This document shows, piece after piece, positions 20,875 through 30,855 of a stretch of DNA of 64,000 bases; position 1 is the stretch's first letter; each line of letters begins with the position of its first letter. The translations under genes and the position numbers were made by a program. The notes under the pieces are model-generated. The model had not been told where the DNA came from. It made no database searches and worked only from the letters and a program-made list of their open reading frames with translations. Source of the DNA: Armatimonadota bacterium (GTDB lineage: Bacteria; Armatimonadota; SYMT01); the NCBI GenBank assembly GCA_041690135.1, contig JAWLHY010000001.1:1408001-1472000 (forward strand), given 5' to 3'.

Positions 20875-22065
20875 ATGCCGTCCGCAGCCTCCCATCCAGA
20901 CCTGCGCCAAAATCATGCATGCCCGCGTTCTATCCGAACGCCGGCCCGGTTGCTCGGGCCGGTGGCGGTGCTGCTCGCTATGGCCTTGCCTGGGGCGGCC
21001 GACCCGATCCCCTCTTACGTCAAGCTCCCCGAAGACGTGCGCGCGGAGGTACGGGCCCTGGATCAGGCTCGGGGACGAGCGACAGGGCCGCTCACCGCAG
21101 CCCAACTCCGGCGCTTCGCGGGGTCACTGCCTCGGCCCCCCACGCAAAAGGGACAACTCTACTTCGCGGTCGCCTCCGCGGACCTGTCGCTCTTTGACGC
21201 GTTGGCGGGCGGTTCCCGATCCGAGGGCGCGCAAGACCCGGAGACCGGGATGACAGCCCTGATGATCGCGGCGGAGATCGGCCAGTGGGACGCGGCCACC
21301 CGGCTGGTGCGGCTCGTGCGGGGCGACGACGGCGAGTTTGTGTTCCGCTGTGAATACGGGGACGCCTACTACAAGCACCGTTGCGATCGATACGGCTACA
21401 CCGCGCTGATGCACGCGGCTTCCGCCGGGCAGACGGAAATCGTCAACTATCTCCTCAACGCCGGGGCGCCGCCGGACAAGCGGTGCTACGTGGCCCGCTT
21501 CGATGCCCTGCAACTCGCGCAGAATAACCGGCACGATCTCGCCGCGGCCGCCCTCCAGCGCCGGTTGTCCGAACAGGAGGCGCGGCGCCGTGAGGAGCAG
21601 CGCCTTCAGGAAGAGCAGGACCACCAGTTTCTCCATTCCGGCTGGTGGCGTGACATGCTGATGAACAATGGAGACCTGTTCGCCTCCCTGCTGGTGACGG
21701 CGCTCCTCTCGCTGGGCGGTTTCCTGTTCGTGCACGTCACGGTCCGGGGGATGATCGGTCGCGACCGCCGTGAATTATTGGTGGGGCTGCTCACGCGCGC
21801 GTTCGTCGAAGAGGCCGAGCGCGATCCTGGAGCCACGCGCTGGACCTATACCGAGGTCGAGCGCCTGGTGCGCACTTTTGTGGGCGAGCTGCGGTGGCGT
21901 CGTGACTTCATGACGCGCTGGCACCCCGCCCACTGGCCCCCCTCGTTCGATCAGGTGGTTGGAATTGCCCGGGACTATCAGTCGGAAACCGCGGAGTATG
22001 TGTGGAAGACCCTCCGCCCCACCGGTGCGGTTTCGGCGGGCTCCCCTTCAGGGAGTTCCAAATGA
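20875..22065 (+). CDS. Ankyrin-repeat protein with signal-like N-terminus, coiled coil, TM helix and C-terminal domain
   Basis: GMTALMIAAEIG, GYTALMHAASAGQTEIVNYLLNAGA; TM LFASLLVTALLSLGGFLFVHVTV; start uncertain. Confidence 0.82.
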   Translation: MPSAASHPDLRQNHACPRSIRTPARLLGPVAVLLAMALPGAADPIPSYVKLPEDVRAEVRALDQARGRATGPLTAAQLRRFAGSLPRPPTQKGQLYFAVASADLSLFDALAGGSRSEGAQDPETGMTALMIAAEIGQWDAATRLVRLVRGDDGEFVFRCEYGDAYYKHRCDRYGYTALMHAASAGQTEIVNYLLNAGAPPDKRCYVARFDALQLAQNNRHDLAAAALQRRLSEQEARRREEQRLQEEQDHQFLHSGWWRDMLMNNGDLFASLLVTALLSLGGFLFVHVTVRGMIGRDRRELLVGLLTRAFVEEAERDPGATRWTYTEVERLVRTFVGELRWRRDFMTRWHPAHWPPSFDQVVGIARDYQSETAEYVWKTLRPTGAVSAGSPSGSSK

Positions 22066-25007
22066 CCCTGGAGGGTACGAGCACGGGGGGAGACGCACTT
22101 TATGTGCGTGGCTGGTGGGGTCGGACCGTCGAGTACCTTGCCGGGCTGTTCGGCGCTTCCGGGGAAACGGAAGCTTCCCCAGCAGAGGGCGCCGCCGTGG
22201 CGGGAATCGTCCCGGCTGGCACGGCGAAATCGCCGCCTCTCGTGGCCAGCCTCGCCTGGGAACGTGAAGGCCCGCCTCTCTTCGGGCACGATTGGCCCCC
22301 CACCCCCGCCACTTACCAGGCGCCTCAAGGCGAGCGTGCCGCCGCGGCCACCCTCCTCCGGCAGGTCCTGGCGGATGCGACCCAGCCGGTGGTGTGCCTC
22401 CATGGACTTACGGGCATCGGCAAGTCCACGCTGGTCGTGGAAACACTGGAAGACGGTGAGCAGCTCTTCGGCCAGGAGTTCTGCGTTTGGATCAACTGCG
22501 AGCAATACCGCGGCCGGGAGCGGAAGGCGCTGGGAACATTCGTCAGCCAGTACCTGCTGGAGGCGATGCCGGGTCTTCAGCCTGCCGGTAGGACCGGAGC
22601 AGAAGCCGCCGATGTTCTTCCGCTGGAAACGGCGGCCCGCTGTCCCGCCCTGCTGGTGATGGACAACTTCGAGGCGATGCTCGATGCGCAGGACTGTTAC
22701 CAGGGCGACCCCTGGGTCTGGGACCTCCTGCGCCTGCGCACCCGCCAGGCCGCCCGGCGTGGGGGCCCGGGTCTCAAGGTTCTCCTCATCAGTTGGCGCG
22801 CGCCGCGGGACATGGATGCGCAGGGCAACGCGGTGGTGCGTCCCCTGGCGCTGGATGAGGGCCTGAGTGACGCGCAAATGCACGACCTCCTGGATGCGGT
22901 CTGGGCGGGCACGATCCAGGGTAAAGCATTGCGGCGGGCCAGCGGCGAGCAGAAGGCGGAGCTGGTACGCCTCTGTGGCGGCAACCCGGCGGCGCTCAAT
23001 GCAGCTTTGACGGCGCTCCGGTTGCAGGAGGGGATCCGCTCGCTGGAAGATCTGCTGGCGCTACCTTTTCTTCAACTCGTAACAGATAACCAGGGACGGG
23101 AGATCAACCTGCGCCGGTACGTCCGCGAGGTCATGCGCCAGGCACGCCAGAACCCGGAGCGGAGGGCCGTTTTGTACGCCCTGGCCCTCCTGCGTCTCCC
23201 TACCCCCGCGGATGATGCCGAGGACGGTGTGCCGAGCCTGGCCAACCGGGTTCACGCACTGGATGGTCGTGTGGAAGCGGCTGCCGATGATGGACCGGCG
23301 GTAGGCGAAGGGGGAGAGCGCGAGCCGGTTACGGGTGAGAATCGAAAGCGAAGAGCGTTGACGCCTCGCCAGGTGAGACAGCACCTGGAGCGCCTGGCGC
23401 CCGGTTTCGTGCGGGTTCACGACAGCGAGGGAGCGGGGCCGATCACCTACAGCCTGAGTCCCCTTTTCGCCAGTGCCGTCTACGAAGAGCTGCGCGAGGA
23501 ATCGGCTCCCGTCCTGGCGCGGCTGATGGAGGCCACGGCCCAGCACTATCAATCGCTGCTGGAAAACCTTCCCGACGCGCTGCGGCCTGAAGAAACGGGC
23601 GAGCCCGCCGGACCCTCGTCGATGGGCGCGCGCTATCGCCTGGAGACACCCGAATACCGCAAGTACATCGCGGAGTGGCTCCGGGCCATGTTGGGCAATC
23701 CCGAACGGGACCCACAGGAGAACCGCGCCAGCCTCGCGGCGGTCGTGCTGAAATTGCACTGGTGGTGGGCGACGTTCGTGCCGTGGGAAGTGTTCGACCA
23801 CGTGCTATCTACCATCGAGCTCGGTCTGCGCCTGGCCGGGCATCTGCAGACCGACGCGGACTTCGGCGAAGAGCGTCGCTTGGTGGAGAAGTTGCGGGAG
23901 TTCGATGTGCACTGGCCAAAGGAAAGCCGCTGGACGGTTGACCCCGATCCGGTGGAATGTCGCCGGGCGCGGGAAGCGCTCCTGGCGGTGCGTCGTGTTC
24001 TTGACTGTGATTATCCCGTCAACGAAGAAGGTGTCTCCCGCCCCACTCTTACCGGCGATCTGCGGGCGGTGGCGGCGATCACGGATATGTATCTGGGCGA
24101 TCTGTGGCTGTTCGAGTTTCGGTTCGGATCTCGGCAGGCAGCCGTGGTGGACCAGGCGGCCCTCTGGATGCAGAGTGCCCGCCGCCGTTACGCGGGGTCG
24201 GCGCACGACGCTGCCGAGAAGGTCCAGGATGAAGACCTCAGTTGGTCCGAGATCTACGTGATTGCCAGCCAGGGCTACCTGGAATGGGAGCGTGGTGACC
24301 GGCTCGCAGCGCTTCGGTTTGCGCGGGAAGGACTGGAGCGCTGCCTGGCAGCGGACCGCTCCGCGCAGGATGAGGCGGATGATGCGGATGCGGATGACGG
24401 CGGGTACGAGGAGCGGGATGCCCGGGCGAAGGTTTATGTAACGTTGGGTGAGGGCCTTCTGAAAGAAAATCCTCAGCTTGCGTTGGACTGTTTTCGGTTG
24501 GCCCACTGGGAAGCGTTCGCCTATCTGTGGGATCCGCCCACGGATCCGCCGAACGACGACTACACGCTGACGCATTACCGGATCACCTGCGAGCGATTCA
24601 TCCATGCACTGCGATGCGTATTTGCGGAAAGCGAAAGGCCCGAGATGGCGCTCGCGGTGGCACGCCAGACACGCGAGTTCTGGCTGGAATGGAGCCGCGG
24701 TGACTGCCATCCCTGCCCAGCTCCGAGGTTGGATCGGGAAGGGGAAGTGTGGGAGAATCTCCTCCGGGAGTGGTCTCCGCAAGAGCGAGGGTGGCTCACG
24801 CCGGATATCACTCCATCTGACCGCGCCCGTGCGCTGACGCAACAGTACCAGGCATGCGCGGCGGCATTATTTCCTGAACTACCGAACGCAGAGGATCGTG
24901 CGTACCGGGACGCGGCGCGGGCCTTTACCCGGACTCATTTTGCGGAACCGTTTCGGCTCCGAGATAAACTCCTGGATTACGTCCGTTGTCAGTTGGCCGA
25001 AGAATAG
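22062..25007 (+). CDS. STAND/NB-ARC-like P-loop ATPase with helical C-terminal region (NLR-like)
   Basis: Walker A GLTGIGKSTL, Walker B LLVMDNFE, sensor VLLISWR, GxP motif CGGNPAAL; ATGA coupling to ankyrin gene. Confidence 0.85.
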   Translation: MTLEGTSTGGDALYVRGWWGRTVEYLAGLFGASGETEASPAEGAAVAGIVPAGTAKSPPLVASLAWEREGPPLFGHDWPPTPATYQAPQGERAAAATLLRQVLADATQPVVCLHGLTGIGKSTLVVETLEDGEQLFGQEFCVWINCEQYRGRERKALGTFVSQYLLEAMPGLQPAGRTGAEAADVLPLETAARCPALLVMDNFEAMLDAQDCYQGDPWVWDLLRLRTRQAARRGGPGLKVLLISWRAPRDMDAQGNAVVRPLALDEGLSDAQMHDLLDAVWAGTIQGKALRRASGEQKAELVRLCGGNPAALNAALTALRLQEGIRSLEDLLALPFLQLVTDNQGREINLRRYVREVMRQARQNPERRAVLYALALLRLPTPADDAEDGVPSLANRVHALDGRVEAAADDGPAVGEGGEREPVTGENRKRRALTPRQVRQHLERLAPGFVRVHDSEGAGPITYSLSPLFASAVYEELREESAPVLARLMEATAQHYQSLLENLPDALRPEETGEPAGPSSMGARYRLETPEYRKYIAEWLRAMLGNPERDPQENRASLAAVVLKLHWWWATFVPWEVFDHVLSTIELGLRLAGHLQTDADFGEERRLVEKLREFDVHWPKESRWTVDPDPVECRRAREALLAVRRVLDCDYPVNEEGVSRPTLTGDLRAVAAITDMYLGDLWLFEFRFGSRQAAVVDQAALWMQSARRRYAGSAHDAAEKVQDEDLSWSEIYVIASQGYLEWERGDRLAALRFAREGLERCLAADRSAQDEADDADADDGGYEERDARAKVYVTLGEGLLKENPQLALDCFRLAHWEAFAYLWDPPTDPPNDDYTLTHYRITCERFIHALRCVFAESERPEMALAVARQTREFWLEWSRGDCHPCPAPRLDREGEVWENLLREWSPQERGWLTPDITPSDRARALTQQYQACAAALFPELPNAEDRAYRDAARAFTRTHFAEPFRLRDKLLDYVRCQLAEE

Positions 25008-25015
25008 GTGGGAGC

Positions 25016-25759
25016 GTGCTGGAACTTCACGAGATTGAGGGCGTCCTGGATTCGGAGCTGGTGCCGTTTGCCCGACTCATCCAAACGCTCTTCCCGCCCG
25101 AGGAGCAGGTTCTCTTCTCGGAGGTGATCGAGCTGGCGCAGGCGAAATCTCGCGGCGAAGCGAAGGAACACCACTTTCTTACAGCGCGGGATCCCGAGAG
25201 TCGTGAAACAGTCGCCATGGCCTGGTACTGGTTGACTTCCCCTGATCCGGGATCGGATCGGGGTGAGGATCCCACGGATGGAAAGGAGAAGCTGTCGTCT
25301 CCCGGCGTGCCGGACCTGCGTGTGGCGTGGCTGTGGTACATTGCGGTCGATCCCCGGCACCAGTCGCAAGGATGCGGAGGGTGGCTCTACCGCGAAATCT
25401 GCCGCCGAGTCTTCCATGAGCACGGCTGCGGGTTGATGGTCCTGGAAGTCGAGCGGGTCGATGTAGCCGCCCGCCACTCGGAAGCACGGGCGGCGGACGC
25501 GAGACGTCGCCTCCGGTTTTACCAGGACCGGTGCGGAGCGCAGCGATTGGAAGGCATCGAATACATCCAGGAGACGGGTTGGCAACCCGGACTGCCGATG
25601 CACCTGCTGATCCAGTGGCCCGATCCTGCCCGCCCAGGATTATCCGCGGAAGCGTCGTTCCATCTCCTTAAGGGACTGTTCGGAGATCAACTGCGAGGCG
25701 TGGAAGGCGTCTCTCCGTGGCTGGCTGGATCAACAGCGGCTGGATCGACAGTGGAGTAG
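25016..25759 (+). CDS. GNAT family N-acetyltransferase
   Basis: WLWYIAVDPRHQSQGCG (motif A), MVLEVE, RRLRFY; GTG start 8 nt after the STAND stop. Confidence 0.88.
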   Translation: MLELHEIEGVLDSELVPFARLIQTLFPPEEQVLFSEVIELAQAKSRGEAKEHHFLTARDPESRETVAMAWYWLTSPDPGSDRGEDPTDGKEKLSSPGVPDLRVAWLWYIAVDPRHQSQGCGGWLYREICRRVFHEHGCGLMVLEVERVDVAARHSEARAADARRRLRFYQDRCGAQRLEGIEYIQETGWQPGLPMHLLIQWPDPARPGLSAEASFHLLKGLFGDQLRGVEGVSPWLAGSTAAGSTVE

Positions 25760-26460
25760 CTTCCGGGCGGCGGAGGCGGAGGAGCGGCGATCGGACGCGG
25801 CGGAGGCTGGTTCTTCAGCAGGTGATCTACCGTGCGAGAAACGGTGGCGAATTGCGCCGGCCCCACGTTCACGAAGCTCCGATGGACTCTATGATCCTGG
25901 ATGATCAGAACCGTGCTGTCCACCATCGGGTTCAGCGACAACCAGGGCGGCACCGAAGTTGGTTGAAGGTAAAGCAGCGGAATTCTGGTGTGACGCTCGT
26001 CTGCCACCTTCTTGATGTGGCCGACGAGTTCGGTCCCGCCCATAAAGGCGACGCATCCTTCCAGCTTTTCACCTCGCGCCTGGTAGCGGGCCACGAGCGC
26101 ATCGATGTGCGCAGCCAGCCTGGCCGCATGCTCCAGTTCCGGTTTCACGAAGGCGGCGATTACCGGTCCGGAGCGCCAGTCTCACGTGTAGCAGTGTGTT
26201 TTCCCGCGATAGGGCCCCGTAACATCCACCATGGGGCTCGGCCCGATCCCCCATCCTACCGTGGGGCCTGAACGACCGGAGAGGAAATAGGCCCACCTGG
26301 CAACCGGCCGAAAATAGCCCTGCTGACCCAGGATGCCGATCCAGGCACTTGCCGCCAGTCCCACGAGAACTCCGGCCAATCGCTTGCGCCGCATACGCTT
26401 TCTTCTTCCTGCCTTCTTGCGGGCGGAGCGGTCCCGGAAACCTTTCCGGCGCCACGGCAT
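25687..26460 (-). CDS. Putative selenoprotein: membrane-anchored thioredoxin-like protein with CxxU motif (in-frame TGA at 26184-26182 = Sec93)
   Basis: ORFs 26182..26460 and 25687..26148 are in the same frame: DVTGPYRGKTHC-Y-T-[TGA]-DWRSGPVIAAFVK; strong RBS AAGGAGG before 26460. Confidence 0.72.
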
Positions 26461-26765
26461 TCGGCCTCCTTAGTCAGGCACTTAGACGATGTGCCTAGGG
26501 TGTCGTTAATCCGCTCTCTCCTCCAGCCGTTGGTCGCATGCGGCTTTTGGGCTCCGCCCGGCTGGAAGCGCGGGCGCACCACGATGCCGTGCCGCCCGCC
26601 GGCTAGTCACCCCTTCGGACCTACTGGGGGAAGAGATTCGGTCACAGGCCCTCATCGGTCAGGTCCGGGTGCTCGCGGGTCCGTTGAAAACGTAGAACAA
26701 GAGGGGCGCTTCCGGTCGGATAACGGCGGTCCCGATGGTGTGCGGATCGAATAACAGGTGGGCGT

Positions 26766-27482
26766 GTGGTGCAGGCAGGGAACACAGGGGCGGAAGTATC
26801 GCCCATCATCGAAGTGCGCGATCTGAAGGTGAAGCTCGCCCACGGCACCGCAGCCTCCTGGGTCCTGGATATCCCCCACTGGAATGTGCATCCCGGCGAG
26901 CAGGCGGCTCTATTTGGCCGGTCGGGTTGCGGGAAGTCGACTCTCCTCCACGTGCTCTCCGGGGTTCTGATGCCCACCTCCGGCAGCGTCCGGGTCTGCG
27001 GCACGGACCTGACCACGCTCGACGAGGCGAAACGGGATGCTTTTCGCGCGCACAAGATCGGCTATGTCTTCCAGAACCTGAACCTGCTCCCCGGTTACAC
27101 GGCTCTGGAGAACGTGCTCCTGGGTGCGTCCTTCTCCGGTCGCGTGGATCGGGCGAAGGCGGTAAGCCTGCTCAAAGCGATGGATCTTGCCGATCGCCTG
27201 AATCAGCCGCCGAACGCGCTTTCCCTGGGAGAACAACAGCGGGTGGCCGTCGCCCGCGCCCTGGTCAAGGAGCCGGAACTGGTGCTGGCGGACGAGCCGA
27301 CCGCATCGCTCGACCCCCGGAACTCCGCGCGGGTGATCGACCTGTTGCAGGCTGCATGCCGTGGCTGCGGCAGTACCCTGGTGCTGGTGACCCACGAACC
27401 GGAGGTGCTGACGCGTTTCGAGCGACAAGTGCCGTTCCGGGATCTGAACCGTCCGGGCGAAGAAGTGGAGCGCCGGCGGTGA
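26766..27482 (+). CDS. ABC transporter ATP-binding protein (LolD/MacB-type)
   Basis: GRSGCGKST, IGYVFQNLNL, LSLGEQQRVAVARAL, LADEPTASLD, VTH. Confidence 0.95.
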   Translation: MVQAGNTGAEVSPIIEVRDLKVKLAHGTAASWVLDIPHWNVHPGEQAALFGRSGCGKSTLLHVLSGVLMPTSGSVRVCGTDLTTLDEAKRDAFRAHKIGYVFQNLNLLPGYTALENVLLGASFSGRVDRAKAVSLLKAMDLADRLNQPPNALSLGEQQRVAVARALVKEPELVLADEPTASLDPRNSARVIDLLQAACRGCGSTLVLVTHEPEVLTRFERQVPFRDLNRPGEEVERRR

Positions 27483-28723
27483 GTTTCTTGCAGATCCTGC
27501 TGCGCAGTCTCCGGCGGCATCGCCTCTCCGGCGCGCTCGCCCTGCTCAGCACCGCGCTCGGGGTGGCCCTGATTGTGGCGGTCGTCTCCTTCCGCGAACA
27601 GTCGCACCGGCAGTTCGAAACGGAGGGCATGGGCGTCGACGCGATCCTTGCCCCCCGGGGATCGGCGCTGCAGGTGGTGCTCAACAGCCTCTACCACCTG
27701 GATGAAATGCCGGGAACGCTTCCGTGGCGCGAGTACGAGCGCGTCCGGCAGGACGAGTTGGTGGTGGAAGCCTTCCCTTTTGCCACCGGGCACTCCTATT
27801 CCGGATTCCGTGTGAACGCGGTCGAGCCGCGGTTTTTTGCCCGGTTCGAGCACCGTCCCGGGCGGGGCCTTTCGTTCGCGCCCGAAGACGGCGGGCAAGG
27901 CCGTCCGTTCGACGCACGGGGAGAGGCGGTAGCCGGCTGGGCCGCGGCGCGGACGCTAGGTCTGACCGTGGGCCAGACCTTCCATCCCGTGCACGGGGTC
28001 CGCGCGGGAGATCCGCCCCATGCGGAGGACGCGCTGCGCATCGTCGGCATTATGGCGCCCACCGGCACCCCGCACGACCGGGTCCTGTATATCCCGCTGG
28101 CGTCGTTCTACACTCTGGGCGGACACGGTGAGACGGTGGCGCGTATGGCGGATCATCCGGGTGAGCGGGAGATCAGCGGCGTCTACTTGCGCCTTCGGCA
28201 CATCCGGGGCGGCGCCCTACACCCAGGAATCCAGCAGTTAAAATATGAGGTGAACCGCCGCCCCGCGGTCCAACTGGTGGTGCCGAACGAGGTCCTGCCC
28301 CAACTGCTGGATATCATTGGTTGGGCTGACCGGGTCCTCTTCCTGCTGGGAACACTGGTAATTGGACTGGGCGGAGCGTTTCTGTTCGTGGTACTGGTGA
28401 CCGCGCTACGGGAACAACGCCGCGACCTGGCGCTGCTGCGGATGCTCGGAGCGGGTCGAAAAACGGTGTTCGGATTGATCCTGGCCCAGGCTCTACTCCT
28501 CAGCCTGGGCAGCGCTATACTGGGCCTTGCGGCGGGGCATGCCGTGATAGCTTGGGGTAGCCAGGCGGTGGCCCAGGAAACCGGGCTGCGGTTTTCGGAG
28601 GGGTTCCTTTCGACAGCCGATGTCTGGACTATTCCGGCGATGCTGGTGCTGGGCGCGGTGGCCGGTTTGTTTCCGGCAGTCCAGGCCTACCGGATGGACG
28701 TACTAGAAGGGCTGCGAGCATAG
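27479..28723 (+). CDS. ABC transporter permease (MacB/FtsX-type, ZrgC-like)
   Basis: GTGA overlap; RGSALQVVLNSLYHL, VGIMAPTGTPHDR.LY, REQRRDLALLRMLGA, PAVQAYRMD. Confidence 0.92.
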   Translation: MSFLQILLRSLRRHRLSGALALLSTALGVALIVAVVSFREQSHRQFETEGMGVDAILAPRGSALQVVLNSLYHLDEMPGTLPWREYERVRQDELVVEAFPFATGHSYSGFRVNAVEPRFFARFEHRPGRGLSFAPEDGGQGRPFDARGEAVAGWAAARTLGLTVGQTFHPVHGVRAGDPPHAEDALRIVGIMAPTGTPHDRVLYIPLASFYTLGGHGETVARMADHPGEREISGVYLRLRHIRGGALHPGIQQLKYEVNRRPAVQLVVPNEVLPQLLDIIGWADRVLFLLGTLVIGLGGAFLFVVLVTALREQRRDLALLRMLGAGRKTVFGLILAQALLLSLGSAILGLAAGHAVIAWGSQAVAQETGLRFSEGFLSTADVWTIPAMLVLGAVAGLFPAVQAYRMDVLEGLRA

Positions 28724-28729
28724 GGCGTT

Positions 28730-29848
28730 ATGTTGTACATTCGCAATCGCCGCTGGTTGAGTGTGGGGTTGGTGCTTTGTCTCGCACTGGTAGCAGCCAA
28801 CCGGGCGGAGGCTTTCCTGCGCGGCCGAGCCGCCCGGGAGAGCCGGGCGCGGGCGATCGGTCGCAGCGTGCGCCTGGAAACAAACTCGCAGGGACATAAC
28901 TCCATCGGCATCGATGAAGCGGCCCTGGCACAGGCGGAAGCGGAGCGTTTTCTCTATTTCGGCACCCTGGCGCAGTGGGAGTACTCCCGGGAATTACCCA
29001 TTGAGTGCCCGCCCGCGGTGAAGCAGCTCAGCGGCCGGCGGTTCACCAGCGTCGGGTTCATGTATCCGCTGGAAGCCGGGGAGAAGATCCGCACCTTCTG
29101 CCTGCTCCGCAGTACGCAAACCTGCTGCTACGGGCCCCGGCCCCAGTACAACCAGTACCTGCTCGTGGAGACCCCCACTCCCGTCTCCTTCGAGCGGTTC
29201 GCCCCGGTGGCCGTTTCCGGCAAGCTCGTGGTGGAGGCAAACCCGGACGAGGGCTACATTTACCGGATGGAGGCGGACGCAGTCTGGAGCGCGGAAGGCG
29301 AGATCCCGGAAGTCGATCCCGTTTCGGCCGCTGCCCGGGCACGGCTGCCGCTGTTCAATTTCGCACCACTGGAAACAATGGGTGCTTCCGTTGGTAAGAC
29401 TTCGAAGGCTCCCGCGGAACTCCAGGCGCTCGACGGTCGCAAAGTGGTTATTTCCGGCTTCTGCGTGGACCGCACCCCAGGCGGTCAGCCGCAGATCACC
29501 GTGGGAAAGCGGTGGTGGGATGGCGTAAGCCAGGGCGAGCCCCCTACCATCCACAATGCGGTCATTGTAGAGCCGGCGGATGCGGACCAAGTCCCCCCCG
29601 TCTGGCAGCCGGAGCAGACGTTCACCGGAACCCTGCACATTACCGAGGACCCGGACCGCTGGCGTGATGAGGGCATCCTCCAGATCCGCGAAGCGGTGCT
29701 GGGCGTGCCGGGTGTGACCCCGCCCGCGGGAGCGCGGCGCGGGCGGCCCCGGATACCGTGGCCGGGAGAGGCGTTAGCGCTGTGCCTGGCGGTCCTGCCT
29801 GCGCTCGGAATACACCGTAAGTCCTCGCCGGAAGGGATCCATCCATGA
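28730..29848 (+). CDS. Protein with two DUF3299-like domains, N-terminal signal and C-terminal anchor
   Basis: PPAVKQLSGR....GFMYPL...F.L...TCCYG..P..NQ (domain 1); PAELQALDGRKVVISGF..PP..NAVIV..FTGTL (domain 2). Confidence 0.75.
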   Translation: MLYIRNRRWLSVGLVLCLALVAANRAEAFLRGRAARESRARAIGRSVRLETNSQGHNSIGIDEAALAQAEAERFLYFGTLAQWEYSRELPIECPPAVKQLSGRRFTSVGFMYPLEAGEKIRTFCLLRSTQTCCYGPRPQYNQYLLVETPTPVSFERFAPVAVSGKLVVEANPDEGYIYRMEADAVWSAEGEIPEVDPVSAAARARLPLFNFAPLETMGASVGKTSKAPAELQALDGRKVVISGFCVDRTPGGQPQITVGKRWWDGVSQGEPPTIHNAVIVEPADADQVPPVWQPEQTFTGTLHITEDPDRWRDEGILQIREAVLGVPGVTPPAGARRGRPRIPWPGEALALCLAVLPALGIHRKSSPEGIHP

Positions 29849-30855
29849 GCCGACATGTTTCTTTCCCACGCATGCGCCGGGCCCGGGGTCCCCTGAGGAG
29901 CGTCTCTACCCGCCGCGGCCTCGTGCTGCTCCTGGTGGGTGCCACGTCCCTTGCCGGACTTGGCGCAGAAGCGTTTGCCCAGTCAACCTCCGCACCGGTG
30001 GAGATCGCCGCGCGCGTCAACGGCGAGAGCATCACGAGGCAGCAGGTGGATGCGGGCGTGCCCGCCGATGCGTTCTCCCGCCGGGCCGCCGTGATCCGAC
30101 GGAACCGTCTCGAGCGCCTGGTGGATCAGGCCCTGGTCCGCCAGTTCCTCCAGTCGCAGAAGATCGCGGTGTCGGCCAAAGCCGTGGATGTCGGGGTGGC
30201 CGCCCTGCGGAAACTGCCGCCCGCGCAGCAGTGCCCCTGCTGCCGTTTTGCCACGCTGGACGAGTACCTGAAAGTGGAATCGATGACCCTGCCGGAACTG
30301 CGGGAGCAGGTCCGCAATGACCTGGGCCTGGAGCGGTACCTCTTCGGACTGTGGGAGAAGGCTTATCCCACCCGGCAGGCCCGGCTGTCCCGTGCCGCTG
30401 CCGAAAGCAGCCGCATCCGCGAGGAGTACGCTCGCGCGTGGCAGATCTTCTTCAACACCCTGCAGGTACCGGACGGGGAGAAAGACCCCACCGTGCTGCT
30501 GGCCCGAGCGCGCGCGAACTCCGCGAAGGCGTGGGACCGCCTTCAACGCGGCGAGCCTTTCGATCAAGTGGCGCGGGAGGTCTCCGAGGACCGGATGAGC
30601 CGCGGCCTGGGCGGCAAGCTCGGCTTCTTCCGCAAGCAGGTGTACGGTGGGGAGTTCGCGGCCCAGTTGGAGAAGATGAAGCCCGGCGAATTGAGCGAGC
30701 CGTTCCGCACCGTGTTCGGTTACCACATCGTGCGGCGGGAAGCGCTCACCGTGGCCGATGAGGTCTCCATTTGCAAGCGCGAGTTCATGGATGGGAAGCG
30801 CGCGGAGTTGATGGAGCGCCTCCGGAAGCAGGCGACCATCGAGCGCCGGCCATGA
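29845..30855 (+). CDS. SurA/PrsA-like parvulin peptidyl-prolyl isomerase
   Basis: [25 protein letters not shown]...[22 protein letters not shown]; CPCC motif. Confidence 0.88.

Follow-up and report, generated by a model that had tools for sequence, protein, structure and literature searches.

In the 64,000-nucleotide (nt) stretch of Armatimonadota DNA analysed here (the window; contig JAWLHY010000001.1, positions 1,408,001 to 1,472,000), the minus-strand region 26460-25687 most probably represents one gene (probability of roughly 0.85), encoding a 257-residue membrane-anchored, exported redox selenoprotein with selenocysteine (Sec, U) at UGA-93. The region is a single frame of 257 codons, in which the list of open reading frames (ORFs) and the translation with TGA read as U revealed a sole internal stop, the TGA at 26184-26182; the read-through frame is terminated by a second TGA (25689-25687). 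Mechanical ORF calling yielded two minus-strand pieces in this one frame, 26182..26460 (92 amino acids (aa), ATG start) and 25687..26148 (153 aa, GTG start). The local read-through sequence is DVTGPYRGKTH-C-Y-T-U-DWRSGPVIAAFVK, where the first Cys is residue 90 and U is residue 93. An AAGGAGG Shine-Dalgarno sequence precedes the ATG (26460-26458), and the 18 nt upstream of the GTG of the downstream ORF (26148) contained no purine-rich stretch and no Shine-Dalgarno sequence. Arg or Lys occupies 16 of the 27 N-terminal residues, followed by a hydrophobic stretch. The initial annotation of this DNA had described two ORFs in a shared frame parted by this TGA alone, a 257-aa read-through product with a basic N-terminus, a hydrophobic anchor and C-Y-T-U, and a strong ribosome-binding site for the upstream ORF with none evident for the downstream one, and every detail compared agreed with the sequence. 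It had also predicted that standard annotation would split the gene. Indeed, the public protein collection holds an exact copy of the 92-aa N-terminal fragment, and the downstream 153-codon ORF was not found there, so that the gene is hidden in practice.

The indexed protein search with the whole read-through protein (P0001) returned one relative, a 217-aa protein (P0002, 46% identity) that is uninterrupted and carries CYTC at the motif. The identities between the two proteins amounted to 41 of 69 positions upstream of the Sec/Cys column and 49 of 105 (47%) downstream. The same search with the downstream half alone gave no match and missed P0002 as well, a blank that reflects the word index and not absence. 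Six-frame searches of seven genomes of the same taxonomic family identified 19 matches, falling into three subfamilies, and in translation a single column held either TGA or Cys. An alignment of 19 relatives showed C90 and the C/U93 column to be invariant, and its consensus (VVDVxGPxKGKQLCYxCxxGxxPVVxAF) is in line with the pattern that the initial annotation had given for related Planctomycetota proteins, DVTGP..G..LCY.C....PVV.IF. The window protein also retains the downstream family invariants F104, L165 and T183. Profile A1 (19 sequences) had matches in 122 of the 401 sampled genomes of the phylum and, in the exhaustive library of 50%-identity clusters, matched 2,252 cluster representatives at E<=0.001 and 1,001 at E<=1e-10. 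Among the matches listed in the 401-genome search (28 further matches lie outside this set), all 37 TGA-bearing ones carry the TGA precisely at the second-Cys column, and TGA forms were present in at least 35 genomes. The Cys/TGA pairing with conservation on both sides, which the initial annotation had proposed to look for, was thereby observed. No other in-frame TGA occurred within the matched region of the 33 TGA-bearing sequences analysed first. The 68 distinct sequences examined first comprised 33 with U, 29 with Cys and one with Arg at the column, as well as five distant ones without both Cys; as sequence fetching favoured TGA rows, the ratio of U to Cys is meaningless and the informative element is the positional coincidence. 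The 150 best database representatives included 125 with CxxC, three with CxxW and nine without the column, and eight of the 150 were fragments of 111-121 aa whose match starts at profile positions 56-66, just past the motif, as expected of Sec genes split by gene callers. The three CxxW representatives and the single Arg (CYTR, locus L070, G094:C632) could be one-step derivatives of TGA, or the Trp could come from a gene caller translating TGA as Trp.

The genome harbouring the window (9.1 Mb, 97% complete) contains the Sec machinery whose presence the initial annotation had asked to be verified. The selA gene (566.6 bits), selD directly downstream of it (369.6 bits) and selB on another contig (383.6 bits) all scored above the curated cut-offs, and aragorn detected a tRNA-SeC (anticodon tca) after selA-selD. 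The selD gene has an in-frame TGA of its own in the context KCGGU-ASK. The same genome also encodes a second Sec paralog of the family (G000:C1:180326-180796; L022, L037), a 178-aa protein with CYVU and a signal peptide, in which TGA is the sole interruption. When SelA was sought in the same 401 genomes at a cut-off of E<=1e-60, it was found in 215 of them, including 33 of the 35 genomes with a TGA form (among the matches listed), 45 of the 87 carriers of Cys forms only and 137 of the 279 genomes without the family. The two genomes with a TGA form and no SelA were 63% and 86% complete. A quick tree of 62 sequences implied at least seven Cys/Sec changes, at least three of them forced by well-supported branches, and placed the window gene on a long branch (2.27 changes per column) among the Sec-type paralogs of its own taxonomic family. 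Related-strain DNA from soil metagenomes was available for parts of the gene. A contig of 151 nt covering 26177-26327 differed from the window at five positions (approximately 3%), all of them elsewhere than in the TGA, which is kept in this independent sequence, in support of the initial annotation. A second contig, 3' of the TGA, differed at 2 of 151 nt, and one of these changes, T143P, matches the family consensus GGPE. The candidate hairpin region described below (26134-26176) was covered by no metagenome contig.

Minimum free energy (MFE) folding of the RNA downstream of the UGA produced a candidate hairpin spanning +8 to +52 nt after the codon, with approximately 16 bp, small bulges and a 7-nt apical loop (CGCCUUC) starting 26 nt after the UGA. 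Over 81 nt, the window gene reached a z value of -2.45 versus dinucleotide shuffles. In the family comparison, which used 60 nt from the codon together with dinucleotide shuffles and synonymous resampling, the corresponding values were -2.37 and -2.27. The Sec members (n = 33, of which 17 belong to one clade) were more stable than their shuffles, with mean z values of -2.33 (dinucleotide shuffles) and -2.04 (synonymous resampling); the means for the Cys members (n = 29) were -0.51 and -0.58, respectively. This 17-member clade (f32) possesses a conserved 14-bp hairpin, with 92.9% of cells paired versus 19-43% in slid controls and with two compensatory pairs. Three Sec members from three other taxonomic families share, as judged by eye, a perfect 7-bp stem with a GGU loop. 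RNAalifold analysis of 21 CPVU members gave no or a trivial consensus. The Rfam scan of 25600-26600 at E<=10 gave a pair of matches no better than chance (E 7.2 and 7.6), and a selenocysteine insertion sequence (SECIS) was not among them.

The AlphaFold2 model obtained with A1 had predicted local distance difference test (pLDDT) values mostly above 90 over residues ~60-220, and included an N-terminal helix at residues 14-46. Foldseek matched the model (E about 2e-8) to DsbE, ResA, TlpA-like oxidoreductases and peroxiredoxin Q. The best VIA match was DsbE (3gl3_B; Z 18.3, root-mean-square deviation 2.1 Å, 140 of 141 residues). For ResA (2f9s_A; Z 16.3), model residues 68-218 were superimposed on ResA residues 38-175, with 137 of 138 ResA residues aligned. 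The active-site cysteines of ResA (C74 and C77, numbered according to the entry titles) correspond to model residue 103 or beyond, in the segment FVKPELE after strand 99-105, where none of the 19 sequences has Cys. C90 and U93 are located at the start of a one-turn helix (residues 91-94) between strand 88-90 (strand 2) and the central strand 99-105 (strand 3). At the start of strand 182-188 lies the invariant T183. None of the 19 sequences has Pro before it; the residue there is N, S, V or A, and from the fold match and the TlpA-type motif we take this column to be equivalent to the cis-Pro column of TlpA-like proteins. Because Cys is missing from the columns of the ResA active site, Pro is missing before T183 and CxxC/U lies at 90-93, the modelled protein is a TlpA-like scaffold without the canonical redox site and with a new CxxC/U centre ahead of the central strand. 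The thioredoxin-like pattern noted in the initial annotation was therefore refined to a TlpA/ResA/DsbE-like fold, but its classic CxxU had to be relocated outside the thioredoxin active site, where the canonical CxxC and cis-Pro are missing.

The window protein resembles the TlpA/ResA/DsbE (CcmG) oxidoreductases in its overall fold, including the N-terminal beta-hairpin, in carrying an N-terminal signal or membrane anchor, by which the domain would come to lie outside the cytoplasm, and in a Cys pair spaced by two residues. It differs from them in that its CxxU at 90-93 is a different site and in that it had no Pfam Redoxin, AhpC-TSA or Thioredoxin_8 match. Peroxiredoxin Q/BCP and the thiol peroxidases showed comparable structural likeness to the model (Z 15-16); nevertheless, the peroxiredoxin signature PxxxTxxC (PMC13188914) is absent around C90/U93 in both P0001 and the A1 consensus, and there was no AhpC-TSA Pfam match. 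With the SelW-like family (PF10262), as listed in Table 1 of that review, the window protein shares a Cys-first, Sec-second motif and a thioredoxin-like fold, whereas it has no PF10262 match, a larger domain, a predicted exported and membrane-anchored location and a motif off the canonical active site. The TlpA-like selenoproteins of the same table likewise place Sec in a TlpA-like thioredoxin fold and have many Cys homologs; these entries are UxxC or UGC, with Sec first in the motif and a conserved-domain model of the canonical family, in contrast to the window protein, with Sec second (CxxU) and no curated model. Kinship with AhpC-TSA/Redoxin proteins was considered and rejected, since hhalign of the family profile against a bona fide neighbouring AhpC-TSA/Redoxin protein gave a probability of 6% and aligned nothing beyond the signal peptide.

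The initial annotation had spoken of a poorly described family, and the searches of family databases were in line with this. Pfam assigned no family to P0001 at E<=1. For nine further members, the best relevant Pfam match was Thioredoxin_8 at E 0.31 in one protein, with no credible family, and 27 broader members had no Pfam match on this domain. NCBIfam had no relevant model for P0001 and nine relatives. A sequence-profile search of the PDB gave matches at chance level only, the best being a Pumilio repeat protein (E 0.01). Five relatives are all named 'hypothetical protein' in their sources, and the 30 ESM Atlas clusters nearest to P0002 are all unnamed; the nearest Pfam-bearing Atlas cluster, YtfJ_HI0045 (0.88), serves as a lead only. 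Table 1 of a 2026 review (PMC13188914) lists 119 prokaryotic selenoprotein families, each with a domain identifier. None of these 119 matched by Pfam or NCBIfam identifier plus Sec motif, families with only CDD or PANTHER identifiers being outside this comparison. Full-text literature searches, including passages of PMC12013277 (deep-Sep) and PMC9312934, returned no description of the family. Within the scope of these comparisons, we provisionally regard the family as uncatalogued.

The paralogs have cleavable-type signal peptides at the position of the anchor of the window protein. As read from the sequences, subfamily B proteins possess short signal peptides with A-x-A-like end sites, and subfamily C proteins (L026-L030, L032 and L045), which are all Cys forms in the examined members, carry twin-arginine-like motifs (SRRSIL, NRRSLL, SRRNLL). 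In the examined Sec forms, the N-terminus is either an ordinary signal peptide or an anchor. The positive-inside rule makes it likely that the domain of the window protein faces outward. At 7 of the 10 loci L057-L066 (L057, L060 and L062-L066; Cys forms from two other taxonomic families), the immediately upstream gene on the same strand encodes a protein with beta-propeller (YNCE/Lactonase) and di-haem cytochrome c peroxidase/MauG (CCP_MauG/cytochrome c/RoxA-like) matches. L057 and L060 additionally have a PSCyt2 + Cytochrome_CBB3 gene on the opposite side, and the subfamily C locus L049 has a strong CCP_MauG neighbour (E 8.8e-57). The di-haem cytochrome c peroxidase-like neighbours of the Cys-form relatives offer a concrete candidate partner. 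Among the database proteins P0015, P0135, P0149, P0103, P0011, P0036 and P0093, the domain was found fused to rhodanese, YceI or BlaR1-type peptidase M56 modules, or repeated two or three times in tandem, in proteins of 530-560 aa.

According to the mechanism that we propose, ribosomes would start at the ATG behind the strong Shine-Dalgarno sequence, and Sec would be inserted at UGA-93 by SelB and Sec-tRNA(Sec), probably recruited by the stem-loop beginning 8 nt downstream, after which translation would continue for 164 further codons. The basic N-terminus and the single hydrophobic helix would tether the protein to the cytoplasmic membrane, leaving the thioredoxin-fold domain outside. Cys90 and Sec93 would form a redox-active thiol/selenol pair, present as a selenylsulfide when oxidised, and exchange electrons with an extracytoplasmic substrate. 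Judged from the sequence evidence, actual Sec insertion at UGA-93 is highly probable. By analogy, a function as an extracytoplasmic thiol/selenol oxidoreductase, as opposed to metal binding, appears reasonably likely.

Several observations weigh against this interpretation. An alternative is that a Cys-type paralog recently lost a Cys codon to a nonsense mutation (TGC or TGT to TGA), which would have left a pseudogene producing the 92-residue fragment only. A Cys codon is one step from TGA. TGA is present in many family members, a check suggested in the initial annotation, but the sole close subfamily relative found, P0002, has Cys, and those relatives that do carry TGA are paralogs with 31-36% identity. 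The protein, metagenome-contig and genome-contig searches yielded no ortholog of the window subfamily with a TGA. Patterns derived from the P0001+P0002 alignment, which were unable to match TGA, hit 52 times in metagenome contigs and 23 times in genome contigs, with no relative among the hits. With a degenerate DNA motif in which TGA, TGC or TGT was permitted, 16 and 14 loci were obtained; none of them passed the family hidden Markov model, and L116 proved on inspection to be a chance match. The long branch of the window gene could also reflect relaxed constraint. The stability of its hairpin is marginal: when synonymous resampling followed the GC-rich codon usage of this genome, z was -1.69, with 5.8% of the resamples as stable (60 nt), and it was -1.56 at 72 nt and +0.39 at 48 nt. 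For 12 diverse Sec members, RNAalifold gave no consensus hairpin that was consistent across columns, which, like the result for the CPVU members, is attributable to hairpins in differing registers. Given the weak z values under genome codon usage and the missing cross-subfamily consensus, the SECIS of the window gene is no more than a plausible candidate. Long open frames are common in this GC-rich DNA according to the ORF list, and since such DNA readily yields long ORFs, the open downstream frame alone is weak evidence. The related-strain contig covers the TGA just 6-8 nt from its end, the genomes in the SelA comparison are kin, so that their counts are not independent and provide a pattern and no clean statistic, and the sequencing runs searched included no RNA run with the window stretch. 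The redox role, derived from the motif and the fold analogy, stays a predicted one. A nonsense mutation nevertheless appears improbable, as 36 other listed family matches carry TGA at the same column, in SelA-positive genomes, the 164 downstream codons retain the family invariants and 47% identity to P0002, and the TGA is kept in a related strain at 3% divergence, where one of the two changes in the downstream contig is toward the consensus. Moreover, the same genome decodes Sec in selD and has a Sec-type paralog. Even less probable, to the point of being hardly credible, are two separate genes, with the TGA as a true stop and the 153-codon ORF translated on its own from the GTG. Both ORFs are open and mechanically called, and the public protein set includes the 92-aa product, but the GTG lacks a Shine-Dalgarno sequence, the downstream ORF is missing from the protein collection, the uninterrupted Cys homologs span both parts, and the split would sever one compact domain between strands 2 and 3. 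Against both of these explanations stand the coincidence of the TGA column, the conservation downstream of it, the retention of the TGA in a related strain and its position within one compact domain.

A different alternative accepts a genuine selenoprotein and assigns to its Cys-x-x-Sec the binding of a soft metal (e.g., copper or mercury), which would make the protein a chaperone or sensor outside the cytoplasm. The motif lies off the thioredoxin active site, in a loop before a one-turn helix, a geometry typical of CxxC metal-binding sites. Human SCO1, which we take to be a copper-binding protein, was among the structural matches (Z 15.0), but the top matches were thiol-disulfide oxidoreductases and peroxiredoxins. 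The first Cys follows a His in two subfamilies (HCYTU, HCYVC); this His is not conserved, however, being Leu or Thr in other subfamilies, and no further conserved ligand was seen. A MacB-type ABC exporter adjoins the window gene divergently, whereas the Cys-form relatives adjoin haem proteins and not metal transporters. Several selenoproteins catalogued in Table 1 of PMC13188914 are metal-binding. On this evidence, we consider metal binding unlikely, albeit a more serious candidate than either a nonsense mutation or two genes.

Beyond the single gene, we tentatively suggest, at somewhat less than even odds, that with the window protein a widespread and so far uncatalogued family of exported selenoproteins (at least 2,252 50%-identity clusters; 122 of 401 genomes) has been recognised for the first time. 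Such a family would combine a TlpA-like scaffold devoid of CxxC and cis-Pro with a new Cys-x-x-Cys/Sec centre that underwent several Cys/Sec switches, and some of its lineages would work with a co-transcribed beta-propeller/di-haem cytochrome c peroxidase-like protein, pointing to an undescribed extracytoplasmic selenium-dependent redox pathway. It would be more than another Cys/Sec pair, as its predicted work site is outside the cytoplasm and its redox motif is shifted off the classic thioredoxin active site. The shifted motif would provide a natural system for studying how new redox centres originate on an old fold, and why Sec is used there. Selenoprotein genes are routinely truncated by annotation, and recognition of the family would fix gene calls in the genomes with a TGA form (at least 35 of the 401 sampled, among the matches listed), extend the catalogue of 119 families and give a name to a large domain family outside Pfam and NCBIfam.

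The coordinates of the features identified within the gene are collected in Table 1. The Pro-rich C-terminal tail of the window protein is not conserved in P0002, as seen in the alignment.

Table 1. Features of the candidate selenoprotein gene, in window coordinates.
Feature	Position	Strand	Basis
Full selenoprotein gene (predicted), 257 codons + terminal TGA	25687..26460	-	single frame, one internal TGA; 46% identity to P0002 on both sides of the TGA
AAGGAGG Shine-Dalgarno sequence, 4-nt spacer to the ATG	26465..26471	-	sequence reading
Predicted signal-anchor transmembrane helix, ~residues 28-46	26323..26379	-	sequence reading; AlphaFold2 helix 14-46
C90-Y-T-U93 motif; putative Sec codon TGA 26184-26182, Cys codon 26193-26191	26182..26193	-	sequence; alignment of relatives
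Candidate SECIS-like stem-loop	26130..26174	-	MFE folds
Predicted TlpA/ResA/DsbE-like thioredoxin-fold domain, ~residues 60-220	25801..26283	-	AlphaFold2, Foldseek, VIA
Pro-rich, low-confidence C-terminal tail, ~residues 217-257	25690..25812	-	pLDDT 61-79; alignment with P0002

On one side of the gene, the plus strand encodes a 1,001-aa STAND-type NTPase with AAA_16/NB-ARC matches (22002-25007) and a convergent GNAT acetyltransferase (24986..25759). On the other side, the divergent region 26766-30855 (plus strand) encodes the MacB-type ABC exporter (ABC_tran, MacB_PCD/FtsX), followed by DUF3299 and a SurA-like PPIase. No functional link to the selenoprotein gene was apparent for these neighbours (STAND NTPase, GNAT, MacB-type ABC transporter, DUF3299 and SurA-like PPIase). 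The 3' ends of the selenoprotein gene and the GNAT ORF overlap by 73 nt (25687-25759), and the C-terminus of either protein may be shorter than its ORF implies. Elsewhere in the genome, selA, selD and tRNA-SeC (tca) form a compact cluster outside the window (G000:C1:1149453-1152363; L001, L003), in which the selD UGA is followed ~33 nt downstream by an 8-bp hairpin with a GUG loop. The neighbour of the second Sec paralog (C1:180326-180796) is a branched-chain amino-acid ABC permease. A truncated CYRC paralog (G000:C2:264574-264810; L031, L053), matching profile positions 2-80 and divergent beyond them, may be a decayed copy. The window stretch was present in two soil-metagenome sequencing runs, at small shares (0.08 and 0.07).

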